In this document: positions 1 through 19,013 of the stretch, piece after piece
Layout of the letters: every line of letters begins with the position of its first letter
How positions within the stretch are numbered: the stretch's first letter is position 1
Virus record (IMG/VR): IMGVR_UViG_2526164631_000038
DNA length: 43,688 nt
Direction: 5' to 3' (one strand)
Source: a virus
Lineage: Duplodnaviria > Heunggongvirae > Uroviricota > Caudoviricetes
Program-made: the position numbers and the translations under genes
The notes under the pieces: generated by a model
The model's input: the letters and a program-made list of their open reading frames with translations, nothing else
Told to the model about the DNA's origin: nothing
Databases searched by the model: none

Positions 1-84
1 ATGGCGGGTTATTTGTCCTGGTTATTCCCCCGTTGTAAAATCTCTCCTAAACTTAACGGTACGGCACCACACTTCGGGGATGAA

Positions 85-276
85 ATGTTCGCGCTGGTAC
101 TTTTTGTTTGCTACCTGGATGGCGGTTGTGAAGATATTGTTGTGGATGTCTACAACACGGAACAGCAGTGTCTTTATTCTATGAGCGATCAACGGATCCG
201 CCATGGCGGTTGTTTTCCGATTGAGGATTTTATAGATGGTTTCTGGCGACCAGCACAGGAGTATGGTGATTTTTAA
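85..276 (+). CDS. yebW: small conserved host protein, YebW-like (63 aa from the internal ATG)
   Basis: Translation MFALVLFVCYLDGGCEDIVV... recalled as E. coli YebW, which precedes pphA in K-12. The upstream part of the 1..276 ORF is probably read-through from the window edge. Confidence 0.5.
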   Translation: MFALVLFVCYLDGGCEDIVVDVYNTEQQCLYSMSDQRIRHGGCFPIEDFIDGFWRPAQEYGDF

Positions 277-936
277 TTATTGCAATTGCACAAGAGTCAG
301 TTCGCCCCCAAAGACAGCACCGGTATCAATATAATGCAGGTTGCCAATATCCACGCGATGTCGCAACGGTGTATGACCAAACCAGAAATGATCAGCACCT
401 GTAATTCCCTGCCCTTTTTGGCGTTCACCTAATCGCGAGCGGCTCCACAAGACCTGATGCAAATCAACGTCCTTTTGCCATTCATAAACATCATCTGGAT
501 AATCGGCATGAGCAATAACATGTTTGCCGGTACGACTGTGTACTTCAAGAATAAAGGGCAAATGCTGACATTTTTCCAGCGCCGTTTTCGCTTGTTTCTG
601 TTGATTATCTGCCAGCGCAATAAACCAGTCGCCGCCATTCATCAACCACAAAGACATCTGCTGGGATGCCAGCGCATCCATCGCCATCTGTTCATGATTG
701 CCTCTTACCGCACGAACCCAATGTTGTTCCAGTAACTGCAGGCAACGTAAACTTTGCGGCCCACGATCGATAACGTCTCCCACTGAGATAAGTAAATCTC
801 GCCACGGATCAAAACCACAATGCCATAATTTGCGGCGCAACTGCTCAAGACAACCGTGTATATCGCCAGAAAGCCAGATATGTCGCCATTGATGACCCGC
901 AATTCTCTGATAAACGGGCGCAGGCTGTTTCATCAA
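277..936 (-). CDS. pphA: serine/threonine protein phosphatase 1 (lambda-phosphatase-like metallophosphoesterase)
   Basis: 219-aa translation with GDIHG, GDVIDRG and GNHE metallophosphatase motifs; matches E. coli PrpA/PphA as recalled. Start may be the second Met (933). Confidence 0.85.
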   Translation of the reverse strand: MMKQPAPVYQRIAGHQWRHIWLSGDIHGCLEQLRRKLWHCGFDPWRDLLISVGDVIDRGPQSLRCLQLLEQHWVRAVRGNHEQMAMDALASQQMSLWLMNGGDWFIALADNQQKQAKTALEKCQHLPFILEVHSRTGKHVIAHADYPDDVYEWQKDVDLHQVLWSRSRLGERQKGQGITGADHFWFGHTPLRHRVDIGNLHYIDTGAVFGGELTLVQLQ

Positions 937-1074
937 TATTTTCCTCCCGCGCTAAAGATCACATAATCTTAACAAGAATGTTAAAAAACGCTGGACTCAG
1001 ACAGTAGAGTGTGTGTTATGGTTGACTATAAAGTCAGCGAAGGAAATGCTTCTGGCTTTTAACAGATAAAAAGA

Positions 1075-1098
1075 GACCGAACACGATTCCTGTTTTCG
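1075..1098. repeat. attL: left copy of the prophage attachment-site direct repeat (displaced original 3' end of sdsR)
   Basis: GACCGAACACGATTCCTGTTTTCG here versus GACCGAATACGATTCCTGTATTCG at 43093..43117 (22/24 identical). The preceding AAAAAGAGACC is the reverse complement of the native sdsR terminator tail. Confidence 0.75.
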
Positions 1099-1226
1099 TC
1101 AACAAACTACAAAATCTTTTAGAATTAATGTGTTAAATAAATTTCTGCTCATCTTTTAATCCCTAACACGTACCATTACATATTAATACATTCAATTAGT
1201 TACCATTTTTTTCGAGTTTTTTAGAG

Positions 1227-1240
1227 AAATTTTCGGGAAT
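1227..1240. promoter_or_regulatory. candidate integrase arm-type binding site
   Basis: AAATTTTCGGGAAT resembles the tandem AAATTTCGGGGA repeats next to attR at 43053..43075. Confidence 0.35.
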
Positions 1241-1397
1241 ATTTCAGGTCAATCCATGCATACACAAGCAATTCCTGTATTGAATAATTCCGTAGCAATT
1301 ATGTAAAATCATCTCCGGCTGATTTTCATTCAAACTCGCGCTATCGAACGTCCATCAGCCAGCCGTGGCACGTTCTTGCATACGACGTGCTACGGTT

Positions 1398-1952
1398 TCA
1401 TTTATCTCCGACTGGAAACTTCTTATACAAAGTCGATACGCCAACATCATAAATGATCGCCACCTTCTGGCGAGGAACTCCTGATGCAATTAATCGTCCG
1501 GCCTGTGCCCATTGTTCTGGTGTAAGTTTGGGACGTCGTCCACCAATTCGTCCCTGTGCGCGAGCAGCTTCCAGTCCTGCTTTTGTTCGTTCAACAATCA
1601 GTTCTCGTTCCATTTCAGCCAGGGCCCCCATCACATGAAAGAAAAAACGCCCCATCGGTGTGCTGGTATCAATAGCATCCGTCAGGCTGCGAAAATTAAC
1701 GCCACGTTCGCGCAACTCCTCAACCAGAATGACCAGATGCCGCATACTACGCCCCAGCCGATCCAGCTTCCAGACAACCAGAGTGTCACCTGCCGATAAT
1801 GTCCTGAGCAGTTTTTTCAGTCCCGGCCTTTCGGACTTTGTACCGCTTATCTTGTCTTCAAAAATCAGCTCGCATCCTGCACAGTTCAACGCATTACGTT
1901 GTAGATCGGTATTCTGGTCATTTGTTGATACGCGTACATAGCCAATAAGCAT
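1398..1952 (-). CDS. site-specific DNA invertase, serine recombinase of the Pin/Gin/Hin family
   Basis: Translation from MLIGYVRVSTNDQ... with catalytic-Ser motif and C-terminal HTH; 184 aa from the ATG at 1952, which has a GGGAGA Shine-Dalgarno. The longer 1988 start lacks one. Confidence 0.9.
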   Translation of the reverse strand: MLIGYVRVSTNDQNTDLQRNALNCAGCELIFEDKISGTKSERPGLKKLLRTLSAGDTLVVWKLDRLGRSMRHLVILVEELRERGVNFRSLTDAIDTSTPMGRFFFHVMGALAEMERELIVERTKAGLEAARAQGRIGGRRPKLTPEQWAQAGRLIASGVPRQKVAIIYDVGVSTLYKKFPVGDK

Positions 1953-2040
1953 GGTAGGTCTCCCTGACAAAAGCAGGAATGATGCCATTTGCTCGTTATT
2001 TCTGCATTTTCATAAACGTTGGTTTGGGAGAAGCGGCAAA

Positions 2041-2353
2041 ACGAAATGTGGGAACAGGGGAAAATCAGATACCTGATATGTCATCATATGCATCAGGTTC
2101 AGGCTGGCGAAAAATGCCAGATGGTTCAATTGAACAGTGGGGACGAATTAGTTTTCCTGGTGAACACGGGCCTGTATCCGCCAATGTTTCATTCCCAATT
2201 CCATTTACACAGACACCGGGCATTGTAATTGTGTGCGATGGTGGTTTCGGGGGCGGGAATATGTGGGGGGCGACCAACTGGAGCACTACCGGCTTCATAG
2301 CTCACTGCAATTATGGTCTTGAAGGTGGTGCGTTTTTCGCTAAGGGCTGGTAA
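2041..2353 (+). CDS. promoterless alternative tail-fibre C-terminal cassette (Sv'-like) inside the invertible segment
   Basis: Open frame without its own N-terminus. Encodes ...[12 protein letters not shown]..., whose NVGT block is homologous, in inverted orientation, to the NVGT near the C-terminus of the fibre gene at 3370..4215. Confidence 0.5.
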
Positions 2354-2796
2354 TGATGAAATATCTGTACGTAAACAACCTGGCATATCCTTACGAACTT
2401 CAGTCTCTTTATGTTGAAAAAGGTGAATGGCCTGAAGAAAAAGGTGTTGATATAGACGAAGTAATTTTCAGGGAATATTTCTATGATACACCACCAGAAG
2501 GAAAATACAGATGTGTCGGAGAGGATGGACTGCCTGCATGGGCAGATATTCCTCCACCAACACGTGAAGAACAAATTGCATCAGCCGAAACTAAAAAGCA
2601 GCAATTGATTAACCAGGCCAACGAATACATCAACAGTAAACAATGGCCAGGTAAAGCATCAATTGGTCGTCTGAAAGGTGAGGAACTGGCGCAATATAAT
2701 TTGTGGCTGGATTATCTGGACGCACTGGAACTGGTCGATACTTCCGGTGCGCCAGATATTGAATGGCCTACGCCTCCGGCAGTTCAGGCCAGATGA
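2353..2796 (+). CDS. tail fibre assembly protein, alternative copy (Tfa')
   Basis: 147-aa ORF; ATG overlaps the preceding stop (TAATG); C-terminal region typical of caudoviral Tfa chaperones; pairs with the Sv' cassette. Confidence 0.65.
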   Translation: MMKYLYVNNLAYPYELQSLYVEKGEWPEEKGVDIDEVIFREYFYDTPPEGKYRCVGEDGLPAWADIPPPTREEQIASAETKKQQLINQANEYINSKQWPGKASIGRLKGEELAQYNLWLDYLDALELVDTSGAPDIEWPTPPAVQAR

Positions 2797-3373
2797 CGTC
2801 CGGCGCTGTGCTGGTATCTGTTGCCGTCACCGCGTCAATGTAATCCAGCACAGCGTTAAGTCGGGTGTTTTCTGGCTGCGTCAGCTTCCGCCCAGCCTGT
2901 AATTTCAGTTGAATCAGACTAATGGAAGCCATTGCAGCATCAATCAGTGACTGACGCTGTGCTTCTGCCGCTTCGACTGCTGCGCTATGCTGTGCCTCAG
3001 TATCGGTCACCCATTTCTCACCATCCCATTTATCGTATGGCGTTAATGGAGCGATAGTGGTTGTATTTTCAGGGTAATCACCCGGAGCTGTGATTTCTTT
3101 TGATTCTCCTGTTTCAGTGCTATAGACCGTTTCACCGCGATGGTCTGGCACATATTCCCATGAGTTAAAATCTGCAGAACGGCAAATTGCATAACCAGCT
3201 TTATATGAGCCAGGAGCATCTAAACAGGAACATGCCGGGATACCGACACCCACAGCAAGATATTCAGTTGATGTGGAAATATATTCCCGTGTCTCACCAT
3301 CATAATTGTAAACGGTAATGTCTCCCGCCTTTGTGGTGATGAGTTCGCTATTTAATACAGCTTTATTCATCAT
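2768..3373 (-). CDS. tail fibre assembly protein (Tfa), currently expressed orientation
   Basis: 201-aa ORF directly downstream of the fibre gene; C-terminus resembles Tfa chaperones; convergent with Tfa'. Confidence 0.7.
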
Positions 3374-4215
3374 GCGGCCCTTACGATATAATTAAAAGCG
3401 ATGTTACGAGGACGAGTTTCTGTACCTACATTTTCACTAATTTCACCATAACGTTTAACACTACGAGAGCTAATAGCTCGTAGTGAGGAAGGCACATTAA
3501 GACCGGGTTCGTCCGTTTTAACTATTCCCCCGTCACCGTATGTAGCCAGTATTCCTGGGTTTACTCCTTCCCGTGCACTTCCTGCGGCGAGTCCGTCCCC
3601 TGTCCATAATTCCATATAGTGTGCATGGTCCAAAATTGTGTGTGGCTGCCAATTAAGCAAAGCGCGACCAGTATCAATCCCGCGACCGTCATCCCAGCCA
3701 CGAATAAATTCACCGCGTAAATCAGGCAATTTATTGGTCGGGTAAGCCTTTGCCAGTTCCGGGTATTCTTCAGCAGAAAAAGCCGCACCGTTGCATTTCA
3801 GCCAGCCTGTTGGCGGTGTGACTGAAGGCCACGGAACAGGCACACCAACAGGTAATGCAGAACCTTCTCCCAAACCAAGGTTTTCGAGAGCCGTTTGCAC
3901 AGTGCCATCCGATTTGATATCGCCAAACGGATTCTTGCGGCTCAGGTATTCAACAGCAAACCCCGATCCCAGCAATTCAACAAAACCGGGCAGATCACCA
4001 TTATCAAGCACATCCCGTTGCGTTTTGTCACTTACAAACTGGGCCAGAGCTGCAGCAATAAAGCTGGCCTGTCGAATGGCTTTGTTCACCTGCGCACTGG
4101 ATGCTTTCCCTGCTGTAAATCCGGATAAAAGCGCAGGCAACGCTTCCCATTCCTCCTGCGACATAACATTGGCATTTCGATCAGTTGCAAACGCTTTAAA
4201 GTCATTTTTCGCCAT
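3370..4215 (-). CDS. tail fibre protein
   Basis: Gly-rich beta-type sequence with a collar-like segment ([18 protein letters not shown]) and the C-terminal [16 protein letters not shown] typical of phage fibres; start MAKNDF at 4215 overlaps the upstream stop. Confidence 0.75.
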
Positions 4216-4895
4216 CAGAGTAATACTCCCCATGCTCCTACATCAAAACCACTGATGAATTCGTTATCCATATCAAAACCAAAAAATTTTGAGCCTTCCG
4301 ATGGGGTTTCCACCGAAGGAGTTTCAATGCCCCCCGCCCATACCCCGGCGGCTTTTACTGTGAGATACCCCTGTTTAATTGCCGCAATTAACTCACGCGA
4401 TACATCTGAAATATCAGTATCAGGAAAGACCCAGACCGATATCGTCATGTCCTGGTTATCGACTATCTGCATTCGCAGCCCGGATCCTGCTGTTGCCGCG
4501 TCAAGAATTGCCGGAAGCGAATCATTCCGTCCGTCCCAGTTATTAATCGCAATCTTCGCTTTAAGGATGACACGATAAGTTTCATCGCTGAGGTACATGT
4601 ATCCGGAATCAGGATCGTATGGTCCCTGCCATACACCCTGATCATATCCAAGCCCGTCGGTATCCCAGCTGAAATAAACACCTGAGATAGGCTGGCTGAC
4701 AACACGGCTACGTCCGATCCACAATCCCAGAATGTCAAGTTGCACACCAACCGCAGAGTCAATATCAAATGCAGTAATCAGCCCTCTGGTGGCCGCCGCA
4801 ACATCAATAAGCGGCCGGGTCATCAGATCAACATGTGCAAGAAATTTAGGTTTGGTGGCGTGGTAGTTCGTGATTAGTTCGGTGTATTTGCTCAT
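4215..4895 (-). CDS. baseplate protein (Mu gp48-like)
   Basis: 226-aa ORF between the baseplate J-like gene and the fibre gene, translationally coupled; position and size fit Mu gp48. Confidence 0.55.
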
Positions 4896-6091
4896 GACTC
4901 CACCGTTATAACGATATTTTCCGGGGTACAGGACGCAGATTCGTTGTATCTGATATCAATGTTTGATGACGACAAAGCCCCCGGAGATTTCCCAATCGTC
5001 AGTTCCTGAATATCGTAATAGCGTGCATTCCCGCCACTCACCACGCCAAGATTCGCCGGTGAGTAAATGCGACTTAAAAGGACCGAATCACCAATCATCA
5101 GACTATTGATATAGTCGGAAATAGCCTGCTGGATCTGCTGCCCTATCTGTGAGGTATAACCCGTAAAAACTTTTAATTTAATCCGGGCATAAACAGGCAC
5201 ATCACTGGAACGCGAGAATTTGATTACATGGGGATTGCCGTATTTATCCGGAACCGTAACGGATGTTGTACCGTGAGTGGCTGTCCCCTGGCCTTTATTC
5301 CCTCTGATAGCCTGAGCAATATCCATCACATCACCGCCATCCACAATTACAGCAACAGAGTGTGGCGGTAACCCGTTACCGTCCTCCGAACCAGTATCGT
5401 TTTCATAGAGTTTGTGGCGGGTTACACCGGTAACATTAGAAACAGCACCATCCAGTGCTTCAAATGGGGTTATTGATGGCAACGCAACACTTTGCGACTG
5501 GCGGATACGTAACTCCGCATCAGTTTCTGCCGGAGAGCCAACAGTAGCCGCAGCAGGATTAGTTACCGAAACCCAGCCACGGGTTGGCGTATTAATTTCA
5601 GTGATAGTTCCAGCCAGCGCCGCCACTGCACCACTGACGGAACATGTTGCGGTCGCCATCACTGTACCATCCACGCCGACCACCACTGAAGCAGGCAAAC
5701 GCCATATCACACTATTACTGTCTTTCACGCTGCCATTAATGATGGTTGTTCCGGCAGTTCCTGTAAGAAGCAAATCAACCGTAGAATTCGTCGCGCCTTT
5801 ACGTGAAATACCATTTATTTTCACGTTACTGGTCAGTGCGGCCCCATAGCCGGTTGCCGGTGAAAAACAGTTGTAGACAGTTATCGCAGTATTATTGGCA
5901 TCATGAATCGCCAGCGCCATCAGAGCCACCATCTGGCCGTCTTTACTATCCGGTTCGAGGTAGGCATCACTGCCATAAATCTGCTGAAAATAGCTAATCA
6001 GGGTGCTGAGTATCGTCTGATAATCAGGCGCACTGATCCCCTCCGCGGTTACCTTTGCAGATAAACCGAGAGAATCAAGGTTCAGAGCCAT
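4892..6091 (-). CDS. baseplate J-like protein (Mu gp47 / P2 gpJ family)
   Basis: 399-aa ORF with an N-terminus characteristic of Baseplate_J proteins as recalled; in conserved baseplate gene order. Confidence 0.7.
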   Translation of the reverse strand: MALNLDSLGLSAKVTAEGISAPDYQTILSTLISYFQQIYGSDAYLEPDSKDGQMVALMALAIHDANNTAITVYNCFSPATGYGAALTSNVKINGISRKGATNSTVDLLLTGTAGTTIINGSVKDSNSVIWRLPASVVVGVDGTVMATATCSVSGAVAALAGTITEINTPTRGWVSVTNPAAATVGSPAETDAELRIRQSQSVALPSITPFEALDGAVSNVTGVTRHKLYENDTGSEDGNGLPPHSVAVIVDGGDVMDIAQAIRGNKGQGTATHGTTSVTVPDKYGNPHVIKFSRSSDVPVYARIKLKVFTGYTSQIGQQIQQAISDYINSLMIGDSVLLSRIYSPANLGVVSGGNARYYDIQELTIGKSPGALSSSNIDIRYNESASCTPENIVITVES

Positions 6092-6444
6092 TACGCCTCC
6101 GATTTAACAGTCGTTATTCCATAGAGAGTGTCGATTTCAGCGGAAAACATGACACGTCGGGTCGTGGTATCCACCGTCGTATTGAAAGAGAGGATTGATT
6201 TAACGCCCCGCGTTTCGAGGATGCGCTTACGGATCGCCAGGTTGTAGGTTTCCGGCTTCTGCTTACCGAGCACAGACTGGATCCACGGGGTCCCTTCGGT
6301 GGTGTCGAGAAACCATTGCCCATACCACAATTCAAATCACGTTTTTACCGCCTGCGCCACGGCCTCCGGTGAGTTAATCAGCCAGGTGTCATCACCGCTG
6401 CCAAAGGTGTAATCGCCATCGGCGTCTTCACGTCTGTATCGCAT
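6091..6444 (-). pseudogene. small baseplate protein (Mu gp46-like) interrupted by an in-frame TGA
   Basis: ATG at 6444 overlaps the upstream stop (ATGA). Frame reads MRYRREDADGDYTFGSGDDTWLINSPEAVAQAVKT, then TGA at 6337..6339, then the same frame continues FELWYGQWFLDTTEGTPWIQSVLGKQ... to 6091. Confidence 0.6.
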
Positions 6445-7196
6445 CAGTTTACCCTATCGGTATTGCTTCCACCGCGCTGAACACCGCCATGAGTGTGCGT
6501 ATCATCGATTGGCTTGCCGTTAGCCTTCACGCTACCCAAAAACTCAACAGCACCAGTGATTTTTGAAGCCACACCAGAAACCACAGACCCCACCATGCCA
6601 CCCATCCAGGTTAACAGGCCATGAATGGTTACTTTCTCAGAAAAATCAGCCAGAGGGGCAACCACATCAAGACCACCCGGAGCGACAATTTTAATTTTCC
6701 TGGTATCAGGATTAAGCTCAAAATAGGTGCTGCCGTCGTCACTACGCAACTGTGTGGCACTGGTATTAATACCGCTAATCTTCCTCGCCTGCGACTGGGG
6801 ACCGACAATACAAAACGCATCCGATAAATCATGCATTCTGTCATCAACAGGCTCCTGTATCCCGCCGTTCTGCCACCAGAAATCAATACAACGATCGGCA
6901 AAAACAACAAGACACTCATCCCCGGCTTTAACCGGAAAAGTCAACGTACAGCCTCCGCCGCGCGGAAATACCACTGGCACATCCACCAGCAACGGGTAAT
7001 TTTTGGTAATGCGGTTACCGTCGTTATCCTTTTCAACCGAACGGATAGCTGGCTGCACAACCGCCGTCACCGCGTCGGGATCGAATGACTGAACAATGCC
7101 AGGCAAGGCGACACGGATCTGGTTCTTTGTGGTTTCCCGTTCAGATTTGAATGTTTCGGCAAGGTCGCCGCTGCGGGTCTGGTCAGATACTGCCAT
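6444..7196 (-). CDS. baseplate assembly protein V / spike (Mu gp45-like)
   Basis: 250-aa ORF; VVFPRGGGCTLTFPVKAGDECLVVF segment resembles the gpV OB-fold; in baseplate gene order. Confidence 0.7.
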   Translation of the reverse strand: MAVSDQTRSGDLAETFKSERETTKNQIRVALPGIVQSFDPDAVTAVVQPAIRSVEKDNDGNRITKNYPLLVDVPVVFPRGGGCTLTFPVKAGDECLVVFADRCIDFWWQNGGIQEPVDDRMHDLSDAFCIVGPQSQARKISGINTSATQLRSDDGSTYFELNPDTRKIKIVAPGGLDVVAPLADFSEKVTIHGLLTWMGGMVGSVVSGVASKITGAVEFLGSVKANGKPIDDTHTHGGVQRGGSNTDRVN

Positions 7197-7210
7197 TTAG
7201 TAGGCTCCAG

Positions 7211-7238
7211 AAAGCAAAAAACCCGCCGGGTGGCGGGT
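7211..7238 (-). terminator. rho-independent terminator after the moron gene
   Basis: Minus-strand hairpin CCCGCCACCCGGCGGG followed by TTTTTTGCTTT. Confidence 0.65.
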
Positions 7239-7255
7239 TCATTATTGAAGTTTCA

Positions 7256-7495
7256 TTACTGCTTGTTTGCTTCTAACGCTTCAGCTATTCGGCGAAGATA
7301 CTCATTGTTTTTAAATGAAACCATGATGCACTCAAAGAATATTCGGCAAAATACAGCACATAACAAAAGCACTAAAGCGCCAGCAGCCTTCCCATTAACA
7401 AACGTTATAATGGCGGCAACAACCAGAAGTAACATTGTGATGCCATACAGAACGTTGATGATTTTTGGAGTTATTAATTTATCAAATCCGAACAT
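7256..7495 (-). CDS. small integral membrane protein (moron)
   Basis: 79 aa with two hydrophobic helices (ITMLLLVVAAIITFV, GALVLLLCAVFCRIFF); no structural-gene character; followed by its own terminator. Confidence 0.6.
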   Translation of the reverse strand: MFGFDKLITPKIINVLYGITMLLLVVAAIITFVNGKAAGALVLLLCAVFCRIFFECIMVSFKNNEYLRRIAEALEANKQ

Positions 7496-7548
7496 GCGAC
7501 AAATTCCTTATCGTGAAAGTAGAAGTACCACATTATAATTACGAGTGA

Positions 7549-7890
7549 TTAATCAACAATCTTTTTGCATGGAAAGGAACCGATGATTTTCGGCGCATCC
7601 ATGCTGTTCTGCAGCAGTTGGACATTCAGGAATCGCGTTTCGGTACCAGGGCGACGAATGTATTCAAAGCCGTAGTTGTTACCGTCTTTGGCAGGCATAA
7701 GCCCCATGTCTACTTTCAAACCATTGGTACCCAGTTCGGTGATTTTTTGAGAGGTAACTCTTTCACCGTTGATTGTCGATAACTCGCCCTGGTTTGCAAC
7801 CATAGTGTAGCCACCGCATTTAACCGTGAAGCCATCCGCCCACGCGCTGCACGCAGAAAAGACAGCTAACAGAAAAATAATACCCCTCAT
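7549..7890 (-). CDS. secreted or lipoprotein-like small protein (moron)
   Basis: 113 aa; N-terminal signal peptide MRGIIFLLAVFSACSAWA; two Cys in the mature part; embedded between baseplate genes. Confidence 0.6.
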   Translation of the reverse strand: MRGIIFLLAVFSACSAWADGFTVKCGGYTMVANQGELSTINGERVTSQKITELGTNGLKVDMGLMPAKDGNNYGFEYIRRPGTETRFLNVQLLQNSMDAPKIIGSFPCKKIVD

Positions 7891-7893
7891 TGC

Positions 7894-8955
7894 TCATTCC
7901 CTTTGCAAAGCCGATTGCGTATACAGATCCGCCGCGCCACGCGCTTCGCACATCATATCCATGTACCACGCCTGGCCCCTTGTATCGCCAGTGTACATAA
8001 TCCCGCGCACAATATAAACGCCATCCGTTGCGATGCTGGCAGGCTGCGATGTGGTGCCGCTTAGCGTAATATTTCCGTCCGTGTTCTGGTCGGTGATCTG
8101 CCCACCAGCCATAGCGATATCGTTGTTCGACAACGCGGTGCGATATACGGAAGCCTGATCCAGTTGAATGAGCCCATTAACCCGGATGTTCGGATTAATA
8201 AGCGCGCGAACGTTTACGCCGTTGCCGATGGTCTGCTGCGGCATGCCAATAAGCCCGGTAGCGCTGTTGAGCACAATCGCTTCGTGAACATATTCATTAT
8301 TCGCCACCATCTGGCGCTGACCGTCTACGAATTGCCATGTTGCGCCACATTGCCCGGCTACGTTATCCATTAGATGCCGCGTCATGCCAAAGAGCACCCG
8401 CCCCCGGGGGAATACAGTAGCAGGCATTTCAGGCGTCAGGCCTTCGGTCGCACCTTTGGCTTCGAAGTCTTTCATCAGCGCACGGTTCACATCAGCGACC
8501 GTGTAACCGGCAGCCAGCGTCTGTGAGGTTATACTGGTGGCAAAAGCCAGATCAGTATCTGCTGCCTGAATCAGGACGTAGGAATCAACCGGACTGTCTT
8601 TTCCTGTAACCGAGTAGCGAATTTCACCGCTGAAAATCAGTCCGTAGTTGCGGCCATCACTCTGGCCCACGTCCGCCGCATCAACCTCCCGCACGATCCC
8701 GACGTCGCTTGCCGACACCTCCGGCGCGATACCGTCGTAACCCGCAATCAGACGCACTTTCGAAAACTCCCGCCCGGTGATTCGGTTCACAGTATCTGCC
8801 GAGAGGTTATAAATTTTGATAGTCCCTACCCGGGACGCGCTGCTGATGTTGAACCAGTCGATCGTAAAGGTCACTTTAAAATCACTTAGCTCAATTCCCT
8901 GACCGTTCCCGTCCACAAGCTGCAGCTCGAAATGTCTCATCCAGTTCTGTGACAT
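7894..8955 (-). CDS. tail/baseplate hub protein (Mu gpP-like)
   Basis: 353-aa ORF in Mu-like tail module order between the DNA-circulation-like and baseplate genes. Confidence 0.5.
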   Translation of the reverse strand: MSQNWMRHFELQLVDGNGQGIELSDFKVTFTIDWFNISSASRVGTIKIYNLSADTVNRITGREFSKVRLIAGYDGIAPEVSASDVGIVREVDAADVGQSDGRNYGLIFSGEIRYSVTGKDSPVDSYVLIQAADTDLAFATSITSQTLAAGYTVADVNRALMKDFEAKGATEGLTPEMPATVFPRGRVLFGMTRHLMDNVAGQCGATWQFVDGQRQMVANNEYVHEAIVLNSATGLIGMPQQTIGNGVNVRALINPNIRVNGLIQLDQASVYRTALSNNDIAMAGGQITDQNTDGNITLSGTTSQPASIATDGVYIVRGIMYTGDTRGQAWYMDMMCEARGAADLYTQSALQRE

Positions 8956-8957
8956 GC

Positions 8958-9260
8958 TTACTCCGTTGATACCAGTAAATGGCTGCGACCGCCCAGGTCA
9001 GTTTTTGTGGGGTAATCCTGTGTGTTGTCATCACAGACCACCACCAGCTTAAAACCAAGCCCCATACAGGCGTACTGCGCCAGCAGGTCAGCACCAGTGA
9101 CGAGAGGAATACCGGAGATTACCGGCTCCCCTCTGTCGTTCTGCAGGTCCATAATCCAGTACAGATCGCGCCATATGATGCTAATCCGCCAGGTAACACC
9201 ACCCAGGACGATGCTGAACTGCTGGTTGTCCGCTGTCAGCGGAATTTCCTGAATTGCCAT
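8958..9260 (-). CDS. tail protein
   Basis: 100-aa ORF translationally coupled to flanking tail genes. Confidence 0.45.
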   Translation of the reverse strand: MAIQEIPLTADNQQFSIVLGGVTWRISIIWRDLYWIMDLQNDRGEPVISGIPLVTGADLLAQYACMGLGFKLVVVCDDNTQDYPTKTDLGGRSHLLVSTE

Positions 9261-9847
9261 TAGCCGCCCCCCAGTAATGACGCCACGTTACCCGTGATGC
9301 TTTTCAGCAGTGAAGTATCTGGAGGCTTGGTGGTTTTGTTGCCGCTGTTCTGTACCGCCGACGTGCTGGCCCCTTCCTTCATGTTGGTTTTATCCGCGAC
9401 GGAAATCTGCTGTGTCCGGGAGATAAGGACCTCCCTCAGGGTGAGGACGGCGGACAGGACGTTTTCGGTTGTCTTGTCCGTCGTCACTTCCAGCGCCCGG
9501 ATCAACATGTTGCTGTACAGTCGTTTACCGGTTACCACATCGAAGGGGATACGGCTTTCCTGCAGATCCAGTAGCTCCTGATACGTCTGCTGAGGACTCA
9601 GGCCGAGCAGGCTGGTAGCCGTCAGGTTACTGGCAAAATCCAGCAATGCGCCACCACCGGCGAAACCAACCTCCATCACCACTTCTGACGGTTTTTTATA
9701 GGCATGATCAGCGACAGCGGCCCCGACCTCTACCGGATGCTCTGTTATTTCAAGCATATCTGTATGCTTCTCTGAAATAACAACACAGGGAACAATCATT
9801 CCTATTTTTCTGCTCTGCTGATGAAAAAGTGTAGAGAGAATATCCAC
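9260..9847 (-). CDS. tail protein (DNA-circulation-like position)
   Basis: 195-aa ORF immediately downstream of the tape measure; first codon at 9847 is GTG, so the true start may be an internal ATG. Confidence 0.45.
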   Translation of the reverse strand: MDILSTLFHQQSRKIGMIVPCVVISEKHTDMLEITEHPVEVGAAVADHAYKKPSEVVMEVGFAGGGALLDFASNLTATSLLGLSPQQTYQELLDLQESRIPFDVVTGKRLYSNMLIRALEVTTDKTTENVLSAVLTLREVLISRTQQISVADKTNMKEGASTSAVQNSGNKTTKPPDTSLLKSITGNVASLLGGG

Positions 9848-11835
9848 TAACCCACCCTCACCTGATTACTTCGCATGACCTGAGCATTTGCAGACTGTTG
9901 CCGACGTGCAACCTCATTACCGACAGCGTGCGGATCTCCACCACCGTAAATGTGGTAGGTATTTTGCTGGTTAACCTCTGTCACTTTGCCACTAATTCCC
10001 GCCACGGCAGCCTTATTAATCAGCTCCCGAGAATAGATATTTCTTCCATTCTCATGCTGGATAATGCTGCTCATCAATGCTGACATGGTTTGCGGATCGC
10101 TCATATTCAGGGCAGCCCGGGGATCCACTCCCAGTCGTTGCGATACAGCCCTGATATACGCAGTTGTGTTGTTATTATCAGACGCAGGTGCCCAGGTAGA
10201 GATAATTTTCTCCACACTGTTTATTCCCCGTCCGGCGTACAGCATTAACTGACGAGCAAGAGCCCGTAATCCATCAAAAGCAGTTTCAAATCTGGCAAAT
10301 CGCCCGCCCGGGCGTTCAAGAGAAGCCCCTGCCTGACCAGCAAAATTAAGGTTTCCCGGATTGTTATTCCGTTCTCCTCGTTTCGTAGCCTGTGCATGTT
10401 GTTCCGGCTCATCATCACCAAACCAGCCGCGTACCGTCCGGCCCACACTGCGGGGATCGAATCCCCAGTGCTCTTTAATCCAGTCGGCAGTACTGTTAGC
10501 GCTGTCTGTAACCATCGGCATCGCTGACGGATTTTCGCTGCCCTGATTAAGTATCTGTTTGCCGATGCTGACGGCATCAGCCCAGCGGCCATCTTTGATA
10601 GCGTTGAGCAGGTCGGCGATCATGTTCAGCATTTTGCTGAATTCGCCCATCTGGTCGATGAAGTTGCTGAAATCCCACTTCAGGGACCATGATTTGGGGT
10701 CAATATTGAGCAGTTTCGCCAGCGCTTTCACCAGGTCGTTAACGGTCGTTTTAAGGTCACGAACCATCTTCAGCGCGGCATCGACCTCCGGTTTCCACTT
10801 GCCCCAGTCAATCAGGCTGTCGCCGCCTTCCTTCCAGGTCTGATAGTCCTCCCACAGGAGGGCAATACCCGCCGCCAGCGCGGTAATGAGGCCAATCGGC
10901 GACATCCAGAACGTACTGTTCAGAATGCGCAGCGCAATCGTCAGTGCGCCAAACAGCGAGATCAACTCCCGCGTTTGCTTATCCAGCGATTGCCACCAGG
11001 TGATAAGGCCTGATGTCCCCTCAATCAGTCTGAAGAACAGCCGCCCGATAATATCCCCGAGCGCCAGAATGCCTTTTATGGCTTTCGTCAGGGTCTGCTC
11101 GATACGAGGGAAGTTGTCCAGGATATGGCGGCGCAGGGTGTCCAGCGAACCCGCAAGCCCCCCCGCAAGATTAGAGCCGATTTTGTCACGGGCCATGCCT
11201 GCCATCGCGCCAAACTCACGCAGGGAGGTCATAAATTTGTTGGAGCTTCTGGCCGCCTCGTCAGCATTGAAGCCGATAGCTTTCGCCATTGCGCTGTACT
11301 GCCCGGAGAAGCCACCCACACCCCGGCGCATCGCCATAAGGGTATTTTCGTCAATGCCCAGCATCTGCGCATACTGGTTAGCCCGGTAATACGGCATGCT
11401 GCTGAGTTTCTGTCCAACGCCCGTAAAAATAGCGGCCATGTCACGCATGTTACCGCTGGCATCACGGGTCTGTACGCCCAGGCGATTCAGAAAGCCTTCT
11501 GCACCGGGATTGTTACGAATAAACCGGGATAGGCTTTCCAGAGAAGATCGCGCAGCGTCCACGCTGCCGCCAACCTGCGAAACCGCATAGCCAATAGACT
11601 GAATTCCCTGGACTGTCGCGCCGGTGCGCTGTGACGCCCAGTAAAGATTATCCAGGCCGGAGGCGATCTTAGCCGTGAAGGCCACCACGGACAACGCAGC
11701 TCCTTCAACAGCCAGCCCCATTTTGATGACATTTGCAGTTGTACCGGCGAGGACAGAACCGAACTTTTTCGCTCCTGCATCATCCACACTGAAGCCAAGC
11801 GAGACGAGGAAATCTTTAATAGTTTCAGCGTTCAT
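9847..11835 (-). CDS. tail tape measure protein
   Basis: 663 aa from MNAETIKDF (GAGAGAGGATA Shine-Dalgarno); Ala/Gly-rich helical body with hydrophobic segments; downstream of the tail chaperone. C-terminal segment contains NNPGNL. Confidence 0.8.
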   Translation of the reverse strand: MNAETIKDFLVSLGFSVDDAGAKKFGSVLAGTTANVIKMGLAVEGAALSVVAFTAKIASGLDNLYWASQRTGATVQGIQSIGYAVSQVGGSVDAARSSLESLSRFIRNNPGAEGFLNRLGVQTRDASGNMRDMAAIFTGVGQKLSSMPYYRANQYAQMLGIDENTLMAMRRGVGGFSGQYSAMAKAIGFNADEAARSSNKFMTSLREFGAMAGMARDKIGSNLAGGLAGSLDTLRRHILDNFPRIEQTLTKAIKGILALGDIIGRLFFRLIEGTSGLITWWQSLDKQTRELISLFGALTIALRILNSTFWMSPIGLITALAAGIALLWEDYQTWKEGGDSLIDWGKWKPEVDAALKMVRDLKTTVNDLVKALAKLLNIDPKSWSLKWDFSNFIDQMGEFSKMLNMIADLLNAIKDGRWADAVSIGKQILNQGSENPSAMPMVTDSANSTADWIKEHWGFDPRSVGRTVRGWFGDDEPEQHAQATKRGERNNNPGNLNFAGQAGASLERPGGRFARFETAFDGLRALARQLMLYAGRGINSVEKIISTWAPASDNNNTTAYIRAVSQRLGVDPRAALNMSDPQTMSALMSSIIQHENGRNIYSRELINKAAVAGISGKVTEVNQQNTYHIYGGGDPHAVGNEVARRQQSANAQVMRSNQVRVG

Positions 11836-12465
11836 TATCCTCTCTCCATTTCTCAATGCGTCGCTGGTTATCCGCTTTTACCGCCAGATGGTCATTCAAG
11901 AGAGCAATGTCATACAAATCGACAGAGCCATCTTTAAGTGCTGTATAAGGAATTAACCCGGCGTCAACCGGATTGAGAAGGTAGGACAGCCCGTCCGGCA
12001 GGCTGTTAAACGTCAGCCCTGTTGCAGGCTCTGCGTCGTGCTGGTAAGGGGTGTAGGCAAAAAATTTCCCAGCGAATCGGCGACCACCCGCGCCACCAGC
12101 TGCAGCATGACCAGCAAGTCAATATCATCAAACATCAGTTCGCCCTGGGTAAATACCGGCACCCATCCGTCCATATGACGCCGCGATACCACCGCAAGAC
12201 AGGGATGAATAATCGCATCGGTGTCATCTTCGGTCAGGGAAGACAGTTCCTCAGCGATACGCGGGAGCATGGTTTCAAACACCGGTTTTAACTGTTCGAA
12301 TTTCACGGTGTCGATTTTGCCGTCAGCAGGCAAACGGGAGCGAATACTCCCGAAATCTGACATCATTCCTGCCAGCACCGGCAGAAGTTTGCGGGTCACT
12401 TTCAGCTGGTCAAAAACGCTGAGTTTTGCCGTGCGATATTTCACGCCTTTAATTTCGAATTCCAT
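11825..12465 (-). CDS. tail assembly chaperone, predicted -1 frameshift fusion product (G-T-like)
   Basis: Slippery run GGGAAATTTTTTG near the chaperone 3' end (plus strand AAAAAATTTCCC at 12059..12070). The -1 frame stays open for about 70 codons and ends at a TGA overlapping the tape measure ATG. Confidence 0.5.
12013..12465 (-). CDS. tail assembly chaperone (lambda G-like short product)
   Basis: 150-aa acidic ORF between the tube and tape measure genes. Confidence 0.65.
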   Translation of the reverse strand: MEFEIKGVKYRTAKLSVFDQLKVTRKLLPVLAGMMSDFGSIRSRLPADGKIDTVKFEQLKPVFETMLPRIAEELSSLTEDDTDAIIHPCLAVVSRRHMDGWVPVFTQGELMFDDIDLLVMLQLVARVVADSLGNFLPTPLTSTTQSLQQG

Positions 12466-12468
12466 GCA

Positions 12469-12909
12469 TTAAAACTCCCCGAGAACCTGGTCAATCTTGC
12501 CGCAGTCAAACACCCACGGCATCGTATTACCGGTTTTAGCGTTGGCGTTATCCGGTTGTTTCTGGAACGCAACACTGCGTGCCGTGATGATGTCGCCGCT
12601 GACCTTGTTGCGGATCACGATAACGTTATTCCCCCATGTGGCAGAAGACTGGCTCTGTGCGTTATACGCCAGCGACAATTTTTTATTTGTCGGTGATGTC
12701 TTCAGAAGGTTAACGGTAATCGTCCCGCTTTTATCTGCATGGAGACTGTGCATCACTTCGCCATCAGCACCGATGGTCATGGTGTTTTTAGGACCGCCCA
12801 TCGCAACCACAATCCCCTCTTCAGAACTTGCCGAACCGTACCCGAGGTCAATCGAACCTGTCGGCCCGGTCAGCGTCGCAGTGACATCCATAAAAGAATA
12901 GGTAGACAT
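12469..12909 (-). CDS. tail tube protein
   Basis: 146-aa ORF directly downstream of the sheath gene; size and position of Mu-like tube proteins. Confidence 0.65.
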   Translation of the reverse strand: MSTYSFMDVTATLTGPTGSIDLGYGSASSEEGIVVAMGGPKNTMTIGADGEVMHSLHADKSGTITVNLLKTSPTNKKLSLAYNAQSQSSATWGNNVIVIRNKVSGDIITARSVAFQKQPDNANAKTGNTMPWVFDCGKIDQVLGEF

Positions 12910-12919
12910 TCACTTCCCC

Positions 12920-14065
12920 TTAGCGAACAACGTTAATCTGTACGTCAGCGTAATGAACCGCGCCTGCAAGTTTTATTGCAGCCTGAATCACCGGAGCCTT
13001 ACGGGCTTCACGTTCTGATTGAGCCTGTTCATCCAGCGGCTGAGCGTATACGTAATAACCTTTGGGCAGTGTGTCACCTGATGACAACTGACCAAGGTCG
13101 CCCCCGTTCCATACGCCCGGAGCAATCAGTCCATTCTGAACGGCCTGATCCAGTGATTTTTCAACATTTGATAACAGTCGGGTAATACCGGCTTCAGTCT
13201 GGGGAACTTTCGTGGTGCTGGTATAAAGCAGGTTATAGAGGTTGGTCTGCACATAATTCTGTAACCAGTCCAGGCCGTGGCGTTCATCAAAGAAATCGCC
13301 GTTAGCCATCACTCCCTGCTGGAGGATAGCCGTATCATTCTGGTAGTACACGAATACATTGCAGTTTTTTGCATCAAGTGCCGATGCCTGGCTGACTGTC
13401 AGTGTTTCATACCCGATACCCGGCTCCTGCTTAAACTTGAGCGTAATCGCGGTATTACTGCCATTGAAATTAACCGTGAATGCCCGGCCAAATGCAGATA
13501 ACGCAGCGTATTTATTACCCGATGAATACTGAATAAAACTGCGTGAATATCCGGCGGTTTTCAGTTTTGATGCCAAATCATCGCTGGATGCAGTCTGCAG
13601 GCATTTCTCATCGCTTGTCGTAATCGCCAGAATACGGCTTACAGAAGAGGATTCGATCGCCGCAGCCACTTTCAGCCAGTCTGCATCCTGAATATCTTCA
13701 TCGTCTGCAATCCCCAGCCCATACCATGAAGTATAATCAAGCATGGCATTCACAGCCTGCTCCAGCGTCTCAGGCGTGGCCTGTTCGCTGTCTCCCTTCG
13801 TTTTCACCCAACGACCAACAAAAACCTCCTGAGGTTTCGGTGATTGAGAGAAAAACACCTGCGCAGCCTTATATTCTGGTGATTCCACGCCAAAATCTTT
13901 TCCAATATCTTCCGCGGCAGAATAACGGCGAATGCGCTCACTTACCGGAATGATTGTGGACGGGCCGAGAATGAGTAATGCACCAAAATTTCGCCCTGAT
14001 GCTGCACGCGGCGACATGATCACATCAACATTAACAACGTTTGATACAGGCAAGCCCTGTGCCAT
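12920..14065 (-). CDS. tail sheath protein
   Basis: 381-aa ORF preceding the tube gene, in contractile-tail gene order. Confidence 0.65.
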
Positions 14066-14068
14066 AGC

Positions 14069-14635
14069 TTAATCTCCGAAAAAGATGACTGGTGCATCCA
14101 CCAGCGATTTAATACCGTACTCGCGCACAACCTTCCGGCGCAGGCGCACCGTCATATCGTAGCGGCGGACCCATTGCTGATTAATAAGTTCAGGGAAGGG
14201 AGTCAGACCTGTGTAATCGCCAAGAGACAGCCCCAGCGCATTCAGTGCTGCATTGTTCTGCGGCACAGATATACCGTCACGAAACCGGGACGCATACACC
14301 ATCCCCGCCGGTCCATAAAACGAAGCCATACACTCAATCGTTTCATGCCGCCAGAGCTGAGAGCCATCATCGGTCTGTCTGGTGAATGCCGGACTGTCAT
14401 CACCTGACCATCCGATAACCCCAAACGCACACCAGTTCGTTTCAACCGGTAGCAGTGGCGGCTGCTCTTTCTGCCAGCGCGGGCGAACCATCCCGGCAGA
14501 CAGACCGGAAACGTTACGTATCCACTGGCTTAACAGCCTGTCGAGCGCTTCGTCATAATCCGGATCGCCACTGGTTGGTATTAACCATCCGCGCTCTGTA
14601 CTGGTGTTATTGCTCAACCGGAGTTCCCCCATCAA
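14069..14635 (-). CDS. virion neck/tail completion protein
   Basis: 188-aa ORF in the head-tail joining block. Confidence 0.45.
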   Translation of the reverse strand: MMGELRLSNNTSTERGWLIPTSGDPDYDEALDRLLSQWIRNVSGLSAGMVRPRWQKEQPPLLPVETNWCAFGVIGWSGDDSPAFTRQTDDGSQLWRHETIECMASFYGPAGMVYASRFRDGISVPQNNAALNALGLSLGDYTGLTPFPELINQQWVRRYDMTVRLRRKVVREYGIKSLVDAPVIFFGD

Positions 14636-14996
14636 ACGGCATCAACTCACAATGCGCCTGAACGAATCCGGCCCCATAAGCTGTATACGGGTCGACGAAG
14701 GTCACACGGTAATCACGGCCCTGATACGTCACGATATCGGCATCACGGCCAGTCTGTCCCTGCGTCAGTCGCTCAGTCGTCACAATCAGAATTGCACCAC
14801 TGATTACCTGCCCGGCCTGCATACGACGGTTTTCCAGAGAGCGATCAACAGTAACGACTCCGGCAAACTGCTTTTTAACTTCGCTGTCGCTGCCGATTCC
14901 GTCCTCATCCACCGTTTGCACACGGCGTGTTACCCACAAATTGAAGTCGCAAAAATCGGGGTCAAAAAGCACATCTGTTACATCAAGAGTCGGCAT
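14607..14996 (-). CDS. virion neck protein
   Basis: 129-aa ORF in the head-tail joining block. Confidence 0.45.
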   Translation of the reverse strand: MPTLDVTDVLFDPDFCDFNLWVTRRVQTVDEDGIGSDSEVKKQFAGVVTVDRSLENRRMQAGQVISGAILIVTTERLTQGQTGRDADIVTYQGRDYRVTFVDPYTAYGAGFVQAHCELMPFDGGTPVEQ

Positions 14997-15537
14997 CTTT
15001 ATCCCTCACTACATGGGTAATAGCTCTGCGATATTGCCCGGTGTCAATTAATGGTTTCGCCAGATCGGTTCCGGGAGATTCGCCAGCAACACGCCGGGCA
15101 AGTTCCAGTGTTGCCCCCTTGCGCCCCCGACGAGCCCGGGCTTCAACAGTACTGTCAGCAAGCGGCGTAAAGCCGGTAATGGTCATGTAACGCCTGACGC
15201 CATTAACGGCCAGCGTTCCGGCACGGTTGAGTGCACTTTCTGCTCCCGCAGCATTACCATCAAGTGCAGCCTGCGCCGCGGCTTTAAGCTGCGGCACCGT
15301 CTGCTCTTCTGCCGATTTAACGCCGGGGACCAGGTGAGGTCGTGGCGGGATGTTCTGCTCTGGTGAGCCGTATTCGTTGAGGTAACCGATGCCCGCATTA
15401 CCAAACGGAACATCATCCCGTTCGCTGTCTTCCGAAGGGATGCCGACCAGCACATCTTTTTTGGTTAACGACCTGAGCGCATCCAGAATGGCCTTAGCGT
15501 TATCCACCCTCGTTGTTACACCGCTTTTGAAACTCAT
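14983..15537 (-). CDS. head-tail joining protein
   Basis: 184-aa ORF in the head-tail joining block. Confidence 0.45.
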
Positions 15538-15941
15538 AGCTGGCGACCGCCTGCACCGAACATCGTGATCAACTGATAAAATTCAGCGCCATATCGGGTG
15601 TTATTCCAGAAACCTGCATCAGGATTCAGCGTCGCGCTGGTGTCATAGCTGACGCTTACCTTATCCACGGACTTTGAGGACTGAACACCATTGGTTGAAC
15701 CGCCCGGACCACCAGCCAGCATCGCTCTGCTGTCAGCCGCCCAGAGCGTCATGTAGTGAGCAACGAACAACCCGGCAAAGTACGGAAACAACTTTTTGCC
15801 GGTGACATTTTCGCTCAGCAGTTCATCGGCCAGATTCAGACGGAACCCGATTTGGGCGTCGGGATATTTTGCCGGGTCAGCAAACTGCGGGAAGTCGCGG
15901 CGAAAATCACTTACCGCTGGCAGACTTTGATTCTTTGACAT
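15534..15941 (-). CDS. head-tail connector protein
   Basis: 135 aa from [10 protein letters not shown] (ATG at 15941); the longer ORF to 16040 overlaps the upstream gene. Confidence 0.5.
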
Positions 15942-16275
15942 CTTTAGCCCCATTACCGCCAGTCCGGGCGGCAGTAATCTGCGCCTGCAGGCTGTCGTTC
16001 TGCTCCTGCAGTTTGAGCAATGCATCTTTAAGATCGGCAATCAGCTTATCTTTGTCGGCAATCTGCGCTTGCAGGCCGTCGATAATGGGTTGCAGATCAT
16101 CGGTGTCGCTAATCACGCTTTCGGAAAGCTCAGAGTGCGCCTGGGTGAACCAGTGCGACGCGACCTCTTCCGGTACGTTATGCCGTCCCCGGCCAAACTC
16201 CTGTTTTGACTGATCGCCGAGCGTCAGCGTAAACGGGGTGTGAACATGGATGGTAACCAGCTTTTCTTTCGCCAT
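15907..16275 (-). CDS. coiled-coil head protein
   Basis: 122 aa from [11 protein letters not shown] (AAGGAAACTGAA Shine-Dalgarno); heptad-like [33 protein letters not shown]; the 199-aa ORF-track version is an unsupported extension. Confidence 0.5.
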
Positions 16276-16315
16276 TTCAGTTTCCTTCAGGCCCCTTTCG
16301 GGGCCATTCTGGTTA

Positions 16316-17257: not shown

Positions 17258-17268
17258 TCGTCTGTTCC

Positions 17269-17775: not shown

Positions 17776-17778
17776 TTT

Positions 17779-18999: not shown

Positions 19000-19013
19000 G
19001 TGTTACCTGCGAT

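Follow-up and report, generated by a model that had tools for sequence, protein, structure and literature searches.

A SEN34-like lambdoid prophage with a probable two-tier accessory slot between its baseplate hub and spike genes

Introduction

Why should two small genes for envelope-directed proteins, followed by a strong transcription terminator, stand in the middle of a phage operon devoted to the baseplate? The question is raised by IMG/VR virus record IMGVR_UViG_2526164631_000038, a sequence of the class Caudoviricetes that is 43,688 nt long; this whole stretch is referred to as the window, and all coordinates are positions within it. Its tail and baseplate genes all lie on the minus strand, and between the genes for the baseplate hub and the baseplate spike are found a gene for a signal-peptide protein of 113 amino acids (aa), here designated sp113, a gene for a 79-aa membrane protein of the DUF4282 family, and an intrinsic terminator. 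A sequence-only reading of the window had described this arrangement as two morons with their own terminator. Both open reading frames (ORFs) are real genes, since sp113 has 396 homologue clusters and the DUF4282 gene has 87, in addition to their family matches. Matches to the region come from Salmonella phage SEN34 (genus Brunovirus) and Yersinia phage YP3, and also from four Escherichia phages of the vB_EcoM-689R2 group and from Klebsiella phages, Mulock among them. SEN34 is a myovirus with lambda-like regulation and replication genes (PMC5261728).

Comparison with related loci favours, with somewhat better than even confidence, the view that the window holds the filled state of a two-tier accessory slot between hub and spike. 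Tier 1 (7549-7890) is sp113 itself, and tier 2 is an exchangeable cassette at about 7197-7548, which here carries the DUF4282 gene.

The hub-spike junction as a cargo hotspot

Two sets of relatives were compared with the window. The close set comprises 80 IMG/VR loci with a hub at least 97% identical to that of the window. The species-level set holds one genome per species and amounts to 74 loci, 66 of which have both hub and spike; hub identities in this set range from 25% to 96%, and the hosts include Citrobacter, Enterobacter, Pantoea, Photorhabdus, Serratia, Rahnella, Yersinia, Erwinia, and others. Across the 80 close loci the hub-to-spike distance varies between 684 and 1855 nt, with 60 distinct slot sequences. 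The hub-spike junction is thus a cargo hotspot of SEN34-like (Brunovirus-type) lambdoid myovirus prophages of the Enterobacterales.

The second position of the slot is where the variety lies. The DUF4282 gene occupies it in 15 of the 80 close loci. Elsewhere it is filled by a pair of genes for proteins of 243–266 aa and 123–153 aa, the latter with a faint HEPN match (243 + 142 and 256 + 131 aa, for example); by a 192-aa protein followed by a YafO-family toxin (4e-17); by a membrane protein of 176 or 184 aa with faint PycTM matches, followed by a protein of 57 or 59 aa; by a 100-aa protein with a DUF2335 membrane protein; by a 207 + 125-aa pair; or by lone genes of 170 aa and 266 aa. About a dozen different cargoes use the slot in all, and the terminator is their shared right boundary. 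These cargo types were seen in loci L037, L043, L051, L054, L055, L065, and many more of the IMG/VR loci, and most are without family assignment.

Both edges of the cassette are sharply drawn. On the left, the DNA of the 3′ end of sp113 is conserved in all alleles up to the last few codons; on the right, homology restarts exactly at the terminator stem, in the order AACCCGCC-loop-GGCGGGTTTTTTGCTTTCTGGAGCC..ATG. Most of the other cargo types possess promoter-like sites of their own just 3′ of sp113, such as TTGACT-18-TAAAAT before the 256-aa gene, these being matches to consensus only.

Relatives with a smaller slot, or with none, show what has been added. Hub and spike are directly adjacent (slot length −1) in the distant relatives L172–L174, and a gap of roughly 50 nt (at most 52 nt) separates them in two more loci; hence the claim that the insert interrupts an otherwise syntenic tail and baseplate cluster holds. 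In six further loci (L145, L147, L150, L151, L153, and L154) the slot measures 347–353 nt and contains sp113 alone, the stop codon of which runs directly into the ribosome-binding site (RBS) of the spike gene. A comparison with prophages lacking the insert, as had been proposed, therefore gives a divided answer: the DUF4282 cassette is extra DNA, whereas sp113 remains, and does so terminator-less, in relatives without cargo.

The terminator and its link to cargo

The terminator was ranked first in a pattern scan for terminators and promoters that covered positions 1-20000. It has a 9-bp stem with six G-C pairs and a 4-nt loop, followed by TTTTGCTTTCT, and the 51 nt around it fold with −18 kcal/mol (z = −3.3 against shuffled sequences). 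Ending 22 nt 5′ of the spike start codon at 7196, it is the sole canonical intrinsic terminator in the tail genes and is as strong, and as close to the next baseplate gene, as had been noted from the letters of the sequence. An Rfam scan returned only a sub-threshold small nucleolar RNA match, which is due to chance. Among the close loci all cargo types share one stem, and only the loop differs from cargo to cargo.

For the species-level set, a slot was counted as cargo-bearing when longer than 420 nt, which gave 53 slots with cargo and 13 without. The terminator precedes the spike gene in all 53 of the former but in only three of the latter (Fisher p = 1.4e-9, 66 loci). A fourth scan hit among the cargo-less slots, in L151, lies inside the coding sequence of sp113 and so was not counted as real. 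Because of this distribution, the terminator is seen to go with the cargo and not with sp113, nor with the two genes of the window specifically. The description "own terminator" accordingly keeps its sense of purpose for the DUF4282 cargo but not its ownership, as the hairpin is the conserved right edge of a slot used by many cargoes. Two loci, L066 and L068, are without the usual terminator before the spike gene and have a hairpin with a T-run directly after sp113 instead; the remainder of their slots contains no long plus-strand ORF and may hold a gene on the opposite strand.

A different purpose for the hairpin has to be weighed here. Instead of insulating a moron, it could act mainly as a partial attenuator and so adjust how much downstream (spike, wedge, fibre) late transcript is made relative to upstream (tube, tape measure, hub) late transcript. 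Two observations would suit such a role: the hairpin is conserved directly 5′ of the spike RBS, its stem the same for all cargo types and its loops variable, and it persists in three cargo-less slots. Yet it is missing from 10 of the 13 cargo-less slots, including all six that contain sp113 only, and accompanies cargo without exception; DUF4282 genes have terminators in unrelated contexts too; and a Q-type system would normally override it. Attenuation is hence considered an unlikely main purpose, although it is among the better survivors of the alternatives.

Override of this kind belongs to the lambda paradigm, in which Q-type antitermination normally carries polymerase past such terminators. 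In the window, a Q-like late antiterminator gene lies upstream of the holin and lysozyme genes, and the lambda-S-type holin (24436-24786) is part of a complete lysis cassette. The components of the lambda-type Q layout, namely a Q-family gene, a putative late promoter, and an early terminator placed 5′ of the lysis and morphogenesis genes, can all be read from the sequence. The candidate late promoter is situated within the 3′ end of the Q-like gene, with a strong terminator about 120 nt further on. The stem of this tR′-like terminator (AACCCGCC/GCGGGTT) resembles that of the slot terminator. Given the Q-like gene and its pR′/tR′-like site, the layout fits a single Q-dependent late operon that must pass the hairpin at 7240, and antitermination past the slot terminator is plausible.

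The DUF4282 gene as a mobile moron

In base composition the DUF4282 gene departs from its neighbours, having a GC content of 0.375, where the hub has 0.544 and the spike gene 0.510. It was found in 84 of 5426 complete E. coli genomes, always with at least 99% identity; the hub was found in 306 of the same genomes, mostly with 90%–99% identity. An identical DUF4282 protein accession occurs beside different sp113 and hub alleles, and the gene is present in a single one of the 66 species-level loci. Homologues with 45%–87% identity occupy the same slot in Erwinia, Pectobacterium, and Hafnia, in the last of these without sp113. Outside this slot, three homologues have the tape-measure gene as their immediate upstream neighbour: one in a siphovirus-type prophage of Klebsiella, one in a Salmonella myovirus remnant, and one in Edwardsiella phage GF-2; in Pantoea a homologue lies 3′ of the lysis cassette, three genes after holin-lysozyme-Rz; and others are found at non-phage chromosomal sites. 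Ten contexts, that of the window among them, were read, and each has an intrinsic terminator no more than about 40 nt 3′ of the gene.

The DUF4282 cassette is therefore extra DNA between genes that are adjacent in relatives (L172–L174 and the sp113-only slots), possesses its own terminator, and deviates in base composition. It behaves as a classic moron, mobile between phage types. Of the "two morons" read from the sequence, this one stands, on account of its low GC content, rarity, mobility, and terminator; sp113 does not, being coupled to the hub and present in most relatives (see below). The notion of an obligate pair of sp113 and DUF4282 was also rejected, as sp113 mostly occurs without DUF4282, and DUF4282 occurs with several sp113 alleles and, in Hafnia, without any.

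The protein itself matches Pfam DUF4282 (PF14110) over residues 2-71 of 79 with 42.2 bits (cut-off 27, 1.2e-10) and phrog_12129 with 8e-48. It is hydrophobic over approximately residues 7-62, with two helices split by a short NGKAAG loop, as read from the sequence; the earlier description of a small two-helix membrane protein is thus borne out. Residues F4, I8, T9, P10, R51, E55, and the block F61-L67 (FKNNEYL) are invariant: in the family alignment the N-terminal motif F..LITP.I and the segment R-x3-E...FKNNEYLRRI are retained, and the helices and the short outer loop vary. Judged from hydropathy and charge distribution, the topology is probably N-in/C-in, which would place the conserved N-terminal motif and the C-terminal helix in the cytoplasm.

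Searches with this protein found no known exclusion, holin, or defence family, and NCBIfam gave only weak sub-threshold matches. There was no match to the HK97 gp15/YebO family, the Pfam scan at E <= 0.01 having returned DUF4282 and a weak YbhQ only. Profile searches of the PDB gave nothing for either slot protein, and a literature search for the term DUF4282 gave no papers.

The signal-peptide gene sp113

The N terminus of sp113 reads MRGIIFLLAVFSACSAWA|DG and is a signal peptide, in agreement with the sequence-only reading. The A-x-A cleavage motif is conserved across homologues that otherwise diverge at their N termini, and C25 and C108 are conserved in the family. The window allele also contains Cys14, which at first sight would permit a lipoprotein of the Cor or Llp kind; this candidate was rejected, as Cys14 is absent from most homologues and the A-x-A site is conserved. 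An AlphaFold2 model made from a shallow alignment of close homologues was unusable (predicted local distance difference test, pLDDT, 56.5) and reached a pLDDT of 85.7 after divergent representatives had been added. It portrays an exported eight-stranded beta-barrel of about 95 aa in its mature form, with one likely disulfide (C25-C108), which would represent an undescribed family. NCBIfam holds no match to sp113, and the protein shows neither the family signature nor a specific fold match of the PliC/MliC lysozyme inhibitors.

The gene is tied closely to its upstream neighbour. Its ATG begins 3 nt after the hub stop codon, and in a 27%-identical relative in the same slot (P0231) the start overlaps the hub stop; in all 53 species-level loci with a family member the start is always within a few bases of the hub stop. 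sp113 is translationally coupled to the hub. In 72 of the 80 close loci and 53 of the 66 species-level loci the hub is followed at once by a homologue, and one is present in all related isolated phages inspected (SEN34, YP3, vB_EcoM-689R2, and Mulock). Among the close loci, identity to the window copy ranges from 54% to 100% despite near-identical flanking genes. As extra DNA, sp113 qualifies only by comparison with distant relatives that lack it (hub identity 25%–53%), and nothing was found to indicate an independent transcription unit: there is no room for a promoter of its own and no hairpin in the sp113-only slots. sp113 is hence a lineage-conserved gene and neither an independent moron nor a recent insert. 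Since sp113 lacks room for its own promoter, its product probably appears late, at the same time as the baseplate proteins; since the cleavable signal peptide is conserved, a role in the virion is unlikely. That the genes might prove to be conserved virion components had been named as what would overturn the moron reading, and this has come half true: sp113 is conserved, but its signal peptide argues against a virion protein.

Eight close loci are without sp113 in first position, and seven of these have resolved slots. In L045, L057, L080, and L083 (slot positions 3-467), sp113 is replaced by an unrelated signal-peptide protein of 153 or 154 aa; in L072, L074, and L078 (slot positions 3-728), by a 241-aa lipoprotein with the lipobox LTSC. 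These exported proteins start as tightly coupled to the hub stop as sp113 does. Replacement of sp113 by non-homologous proteins that are likewise exported suggests a shared, envelope-directed role.

The sp113 family is small, with 40 clusters at 50% identity among 1.84 billion proteins, and is nearly confined to the slot. One 25%-identical relative is chromosomal, lying between cls/yciY and yciI/tonB in a contig from an enterobacterial metagenome (L098, 5001-5357), and suggests that the phage family is of host origin. The sp113 profile also matches several giant repeat proteins (4267, 5298, and 1805 aa) in the representative library, P0211, P0236, and P0232 among them, with up to 19 stretches; those that were checked contain Ig-like or Listeria-Bacteroides repeats, and the matches were treated as compositional or beta-strand similarity, not homology. 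With the neighbouring hub and spike, the alleles of sp113 show no more than a weak linkage. A specific inhibitor of the C-terminal domain of the tape-measure protein, with matching alleles, was considered for sp113 and rejected for want of correlation with tape-measure alleles.

Proposed mechanism and its alternatives

From this arrangement we infer the following course of events. As a late gene, sp113 would send to the periplasm a non-structural, disulfide-closed barrel processed by signal peptidase I. Cassettes are exchanged between two conserved anchors, the last codons of sp113 and the terminator stem. In the lysogen, the candidate cassette promoter would drive the DUF4282 gene alone, and the hairpin would prevent the spike, wedge, and fibre genes from being transcribed with it; during lytic growth, polymerase modified at the late promoter by the Q-like antiterminator would continue past the terminator. 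By analogy with HK97 gp15, the DUF4282 protein would most likely serve to block genome entry of incoming phages at the inner membrane (superinfection exclusion), and the sp113 protein would probably act in the periplasm on the envelope or on the incoming phage. The recurrence of DUF4282 genes beside tape-measure genes is the main new, albeit circumstantial, hint of a gp15-like function.

A bolder version would make the slot a dedicated two-layer locus against superinfection, in which the sp113 barrel blocks a periplasmic step of tail penetration and the DUF4282 protein is a tape-measure-directed blocker of channel formation in the inner membrane. This is held to be rather improbable. If it were true, the location of DUF4282 genes after tape-measure genes in three unrelated tail modules would reflect a functional link between the DUF4282 protein and the tape measure. 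Two uncharacterised envelope families are in either case flagged as candidates for entry exclusion: phrog_3443, a predicted secreted beta-barrel, and DUF4282/phrog_12129, a predicted two-helix protein of the inner membrane.

Several observations count against the account given above. The terminator is kept in three cargo-less slots (L121, L165, and L166) and may thus have an additional role. The candidate cassette promoter, TTGTTG-16-TATAAT in the 53-nt spacer, has 9 of 12 consensus matches with a weak −35 element (3 of 6) and scores below the threshold of a standard scan, and a perfect TATAAT can occur by chance in an AT-rich spacer. The conserved residues of the DUF4282 protein lie on the predicted cytoplasmic side, whereas an incoming tail would be expected to touch the periplasmic loop. 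Alleles of sp113 do not covary with those of the tape measure (Spearman 0.18, p = 0.14). Neither protein matched any model of PADLOC-DB 2.0 (E <= 1), nor a Pfam family with a known exclusion role. Lastly, 0–9 nt separate the DUF4282 gene from the tape-measure gene in GF-2 and in the Salmonella remnant; there the DUF4282 gene is co-transcribed late, and a function in the phage's own cycle would explain this no less well than exclusion.

Both genes could alternatively be lysogenic-conversion factors that alter the host envelope (resistance to serum or stress, or adhesion) and have no anti-phage role. Both products are envelope-directed, precedents exist in lambda Bor and Lom (PMC3594210), and the chromosomal homologues of sp113 (cls/yciY-yciI/tonB) and of DUF4282 suggest roles in host physiology. 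Expression of sp113 would, however, probably be confined to late transcription, as it has no promoter room; the other slot cargoes look more like toxin-antitoxin or defence genes (strongly so for YafO, weakly for HEPN and PycTM); and DUF4282 recurs beside tape-measure genes. Conversion is accordingly doubtful, to much the same degree as attenuation.

Less probable still is that the DUF4282 protein serves in lysis timing, as a class II holin, pinhole-former, or antiholin-like factor, and not in exclusion. Class II holins share a general shape to which the DUF4282 protein can be compared: it is 79 aa long, spans the membrane with two helices, probably N-in/C-in, and has a charged tail at its C terminus. 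The Pantoea copy next to the lysis genes and the GF-2 copy, a tightly coupled late gene, could be understood in the same way. Against this, neither Pfam nor NCBIfam yielded a holin family match, the prophage already possesses a holin of lambda-S type in its complete lysis cassette, and DUF4282 has chromosomal, non-phage copies, with most contexts being tail modules.

Very improbable, finally, is that the two genes serve the baseplate as conserved structural or assembly components, with nothing accessory about them: sp113 does follow the hub, in coupled fashion, in most relatives and in every related phage isolate inspected, but its family-wide cleavable signal peptide does not suit tail assembly, which is cytoplasmic, it is swapped for unrelated exported proteins at hub identities of at least 97%, it is absent from 13 of the 66 species-level loci (five with slots of at most 52 nt, three of these with no gap), and the DUF4282 gene is present in only about one-quarter of such E. 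coli prophages and in one species-level locus.

The surrounding prophage

The features of the window that bear on the slot are collected in the table.

Table. Tail, baseplate, and late-control features of the window, with tail genes in transcription order
Feature	Coordinates	Strand	Remarks
Tape-measure protein	9847-11856	minus	First of the listed tail genes in transcription order
Dit-like protein	9260-9847	minus	
Plug, Pam3-gp18-like	8958-9260	minus	
Baseplate hub, 353 aa	7894-8955	minus	phrog_196, 3.5e-89; weak Pfam E217_GP41; left backbone flank
sp113, 113 aa, tier-1 gene	7549-7890	minus	phrog_3443, 1.4e-47
Signal peptide of sp113, residues 1-18	7837-7890	minus	Cleavage after AWA; hydrophobic core residues 3-23
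Candidate sigma-70 promoter of cargo cassette	7532-7559	minus	−35 TTGTTG (7559-7554), 16-nt spacer, −10 TATAAT (7537-7532)
RBS AAGGAA	7504-7509	minus	8 nt 5′ of DUF4282 ATG; read from sequence
DUF4282 protein gene, 79 aa, tier-2 cargo	7256-7495	minus	Pfam PF14110; phrog_12129
Intrinsic terminator	7209-7240	minus	Stem 7240-7219, T-run to 7209; right slot edge, directly 5′ of spike RBS GGAG
Baseplate spike, gpV-type, 250 aa	6444-7196	minus	Pfam N-terminal spike domain, 2.9e-44, and Apex motif; right backbone flank
Sheath-initiator-like gene	6091-6444	minus	
Baseplate_J	4892-6091	minus	
DUF2612	4215-4895	minus	
Tail fibre	3370-4233	minus	
Q-like late antiterminator gene	25916-26578	minus	Pfam DUF1133, 5.4e-109; Phage_antitermQ, 27 bits (cut-off 26)
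Candidate late promoter (25981-25952), then terminator (25835-25810)	25810-25981	minus	Pattern scan only; pR′/tR′-like

An identical slot is present in a prophage of E. coli FDAARGOS_1059, which adjoins pphA and pinE and has lambda-type lysis and nin-region genes. The sheath-initiator-like gene, which in relatives encodes a protein of 117 aa, is interrupted in the window by an in-frame TAA that follows codon 35, at 6337-6339 on the minus strand; therefore, the prophage probably cannot build tails. RefSeq annotates the same gene of the near-identical FDAARGOS_1059 prophage with an internal stop and lists two further morphogenesis genes as frameshifted. The accessory genes beside the interrupted gene are intact.

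Two further regions may be of interest. The plus strand carries, at 28619-29716, an ORF for a 365-aa "Beta protein" (PF14350, 7.7e-52); it lies among the early and nin-region genes, on the strand opposite to them, and may be accessory. Two tail-fibre-assembly-like ORFs, at 2353-2796 (plus) and 2768-3373 (minus), are convergent and overlap. The pinE recombinase beside alternative fibre genes in the related prophage suggests that 2353-3373 may be an invertible host-range segment.

Comparison with known systems

Morons and prophage cargo hotspots are already well known, and the principle is not new: what is found here, a moron inside a cargo hotspot of a prophage, is nothing out of the ordinary, whereas this position in this lineage was not found described in searchable papers. 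Its use lies in a precisely bounded hotspot in a common Enterobacterales prophage family, found in about 5% of complete E. coli genomes. Hence a mining rule can be stated, whereby everything between the last codons of sp113 and the AACCCGCC...GGCGGGTTTTTT hairpin that precedes the spike gene counts as exchangeable cargo.

The HK97 gene 15 moron, and the definition of morons in general, reportedly go back to Juhala et al. in 2000 and Cumby et al. in 2012. Like that gene, the DUF4282 gene encodes a small inner-membrane protein within a lambdoid tail operon and is extra DNA with deviating GC content and its own terminator. HK97 gene 15 is likewise near a tape-measure gene, and chromosomal homologues exist on both sides (YebO for gp15; chromosomal DUF4282 here). 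Unlike gp15, the DUF4282 protein has two helices and no sequence relationship to YebO, its gene is situated between hub and spike of a contractile-tail module, and exclusion is proposed for it by analogy only. The gp15 protein is the product of a moron adjoining the tape-measure gene and blocks genome entry; its specificity is set by the tail region of the phage, as HK97/HK022 tail swaps demonstrated, and it has chromosomal homologues (PMC3594210). It was for HK97 and HK022 that morons were defined by a logic of promoter, gene, and terminator acting in the lysogen (PMC3594210).

For sp113, the closest systems include T4 Spackle, a periplasmic inhibitor of the lysozyme of incoming tails, and the PliC/MliC lysozyme inhibitors. 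Cor (phi80, N15, and HK022) and Llp (T5) are also small envelope-targeted proteins encoded in or beside tail genes; they are receptor-masking lipoproteins that protect against superinfection. sp113 differs from them in having a conserved signal peptidase I site and no conserved Cys14, thus not being a lipoprotein, and has no sequence similarity to either.

The slot as a whole most resembles the anti-phage hotspots of P2 and P4 (Rousset et al. 2022, PMC9122126) and the Tai moron loci (PMC11364771), where unrelated cargoes are likewise swapped at a fixed position of the backbone and include toxin-antitoxin and defence-like genes. It differs from these in that an antiviral role of its cargoes is only putative, in its occurrence in SEN34-like lambdoid myoviruses at an unusual site inside the baseplate operon, and in its constant first-position gene for an exported protein.

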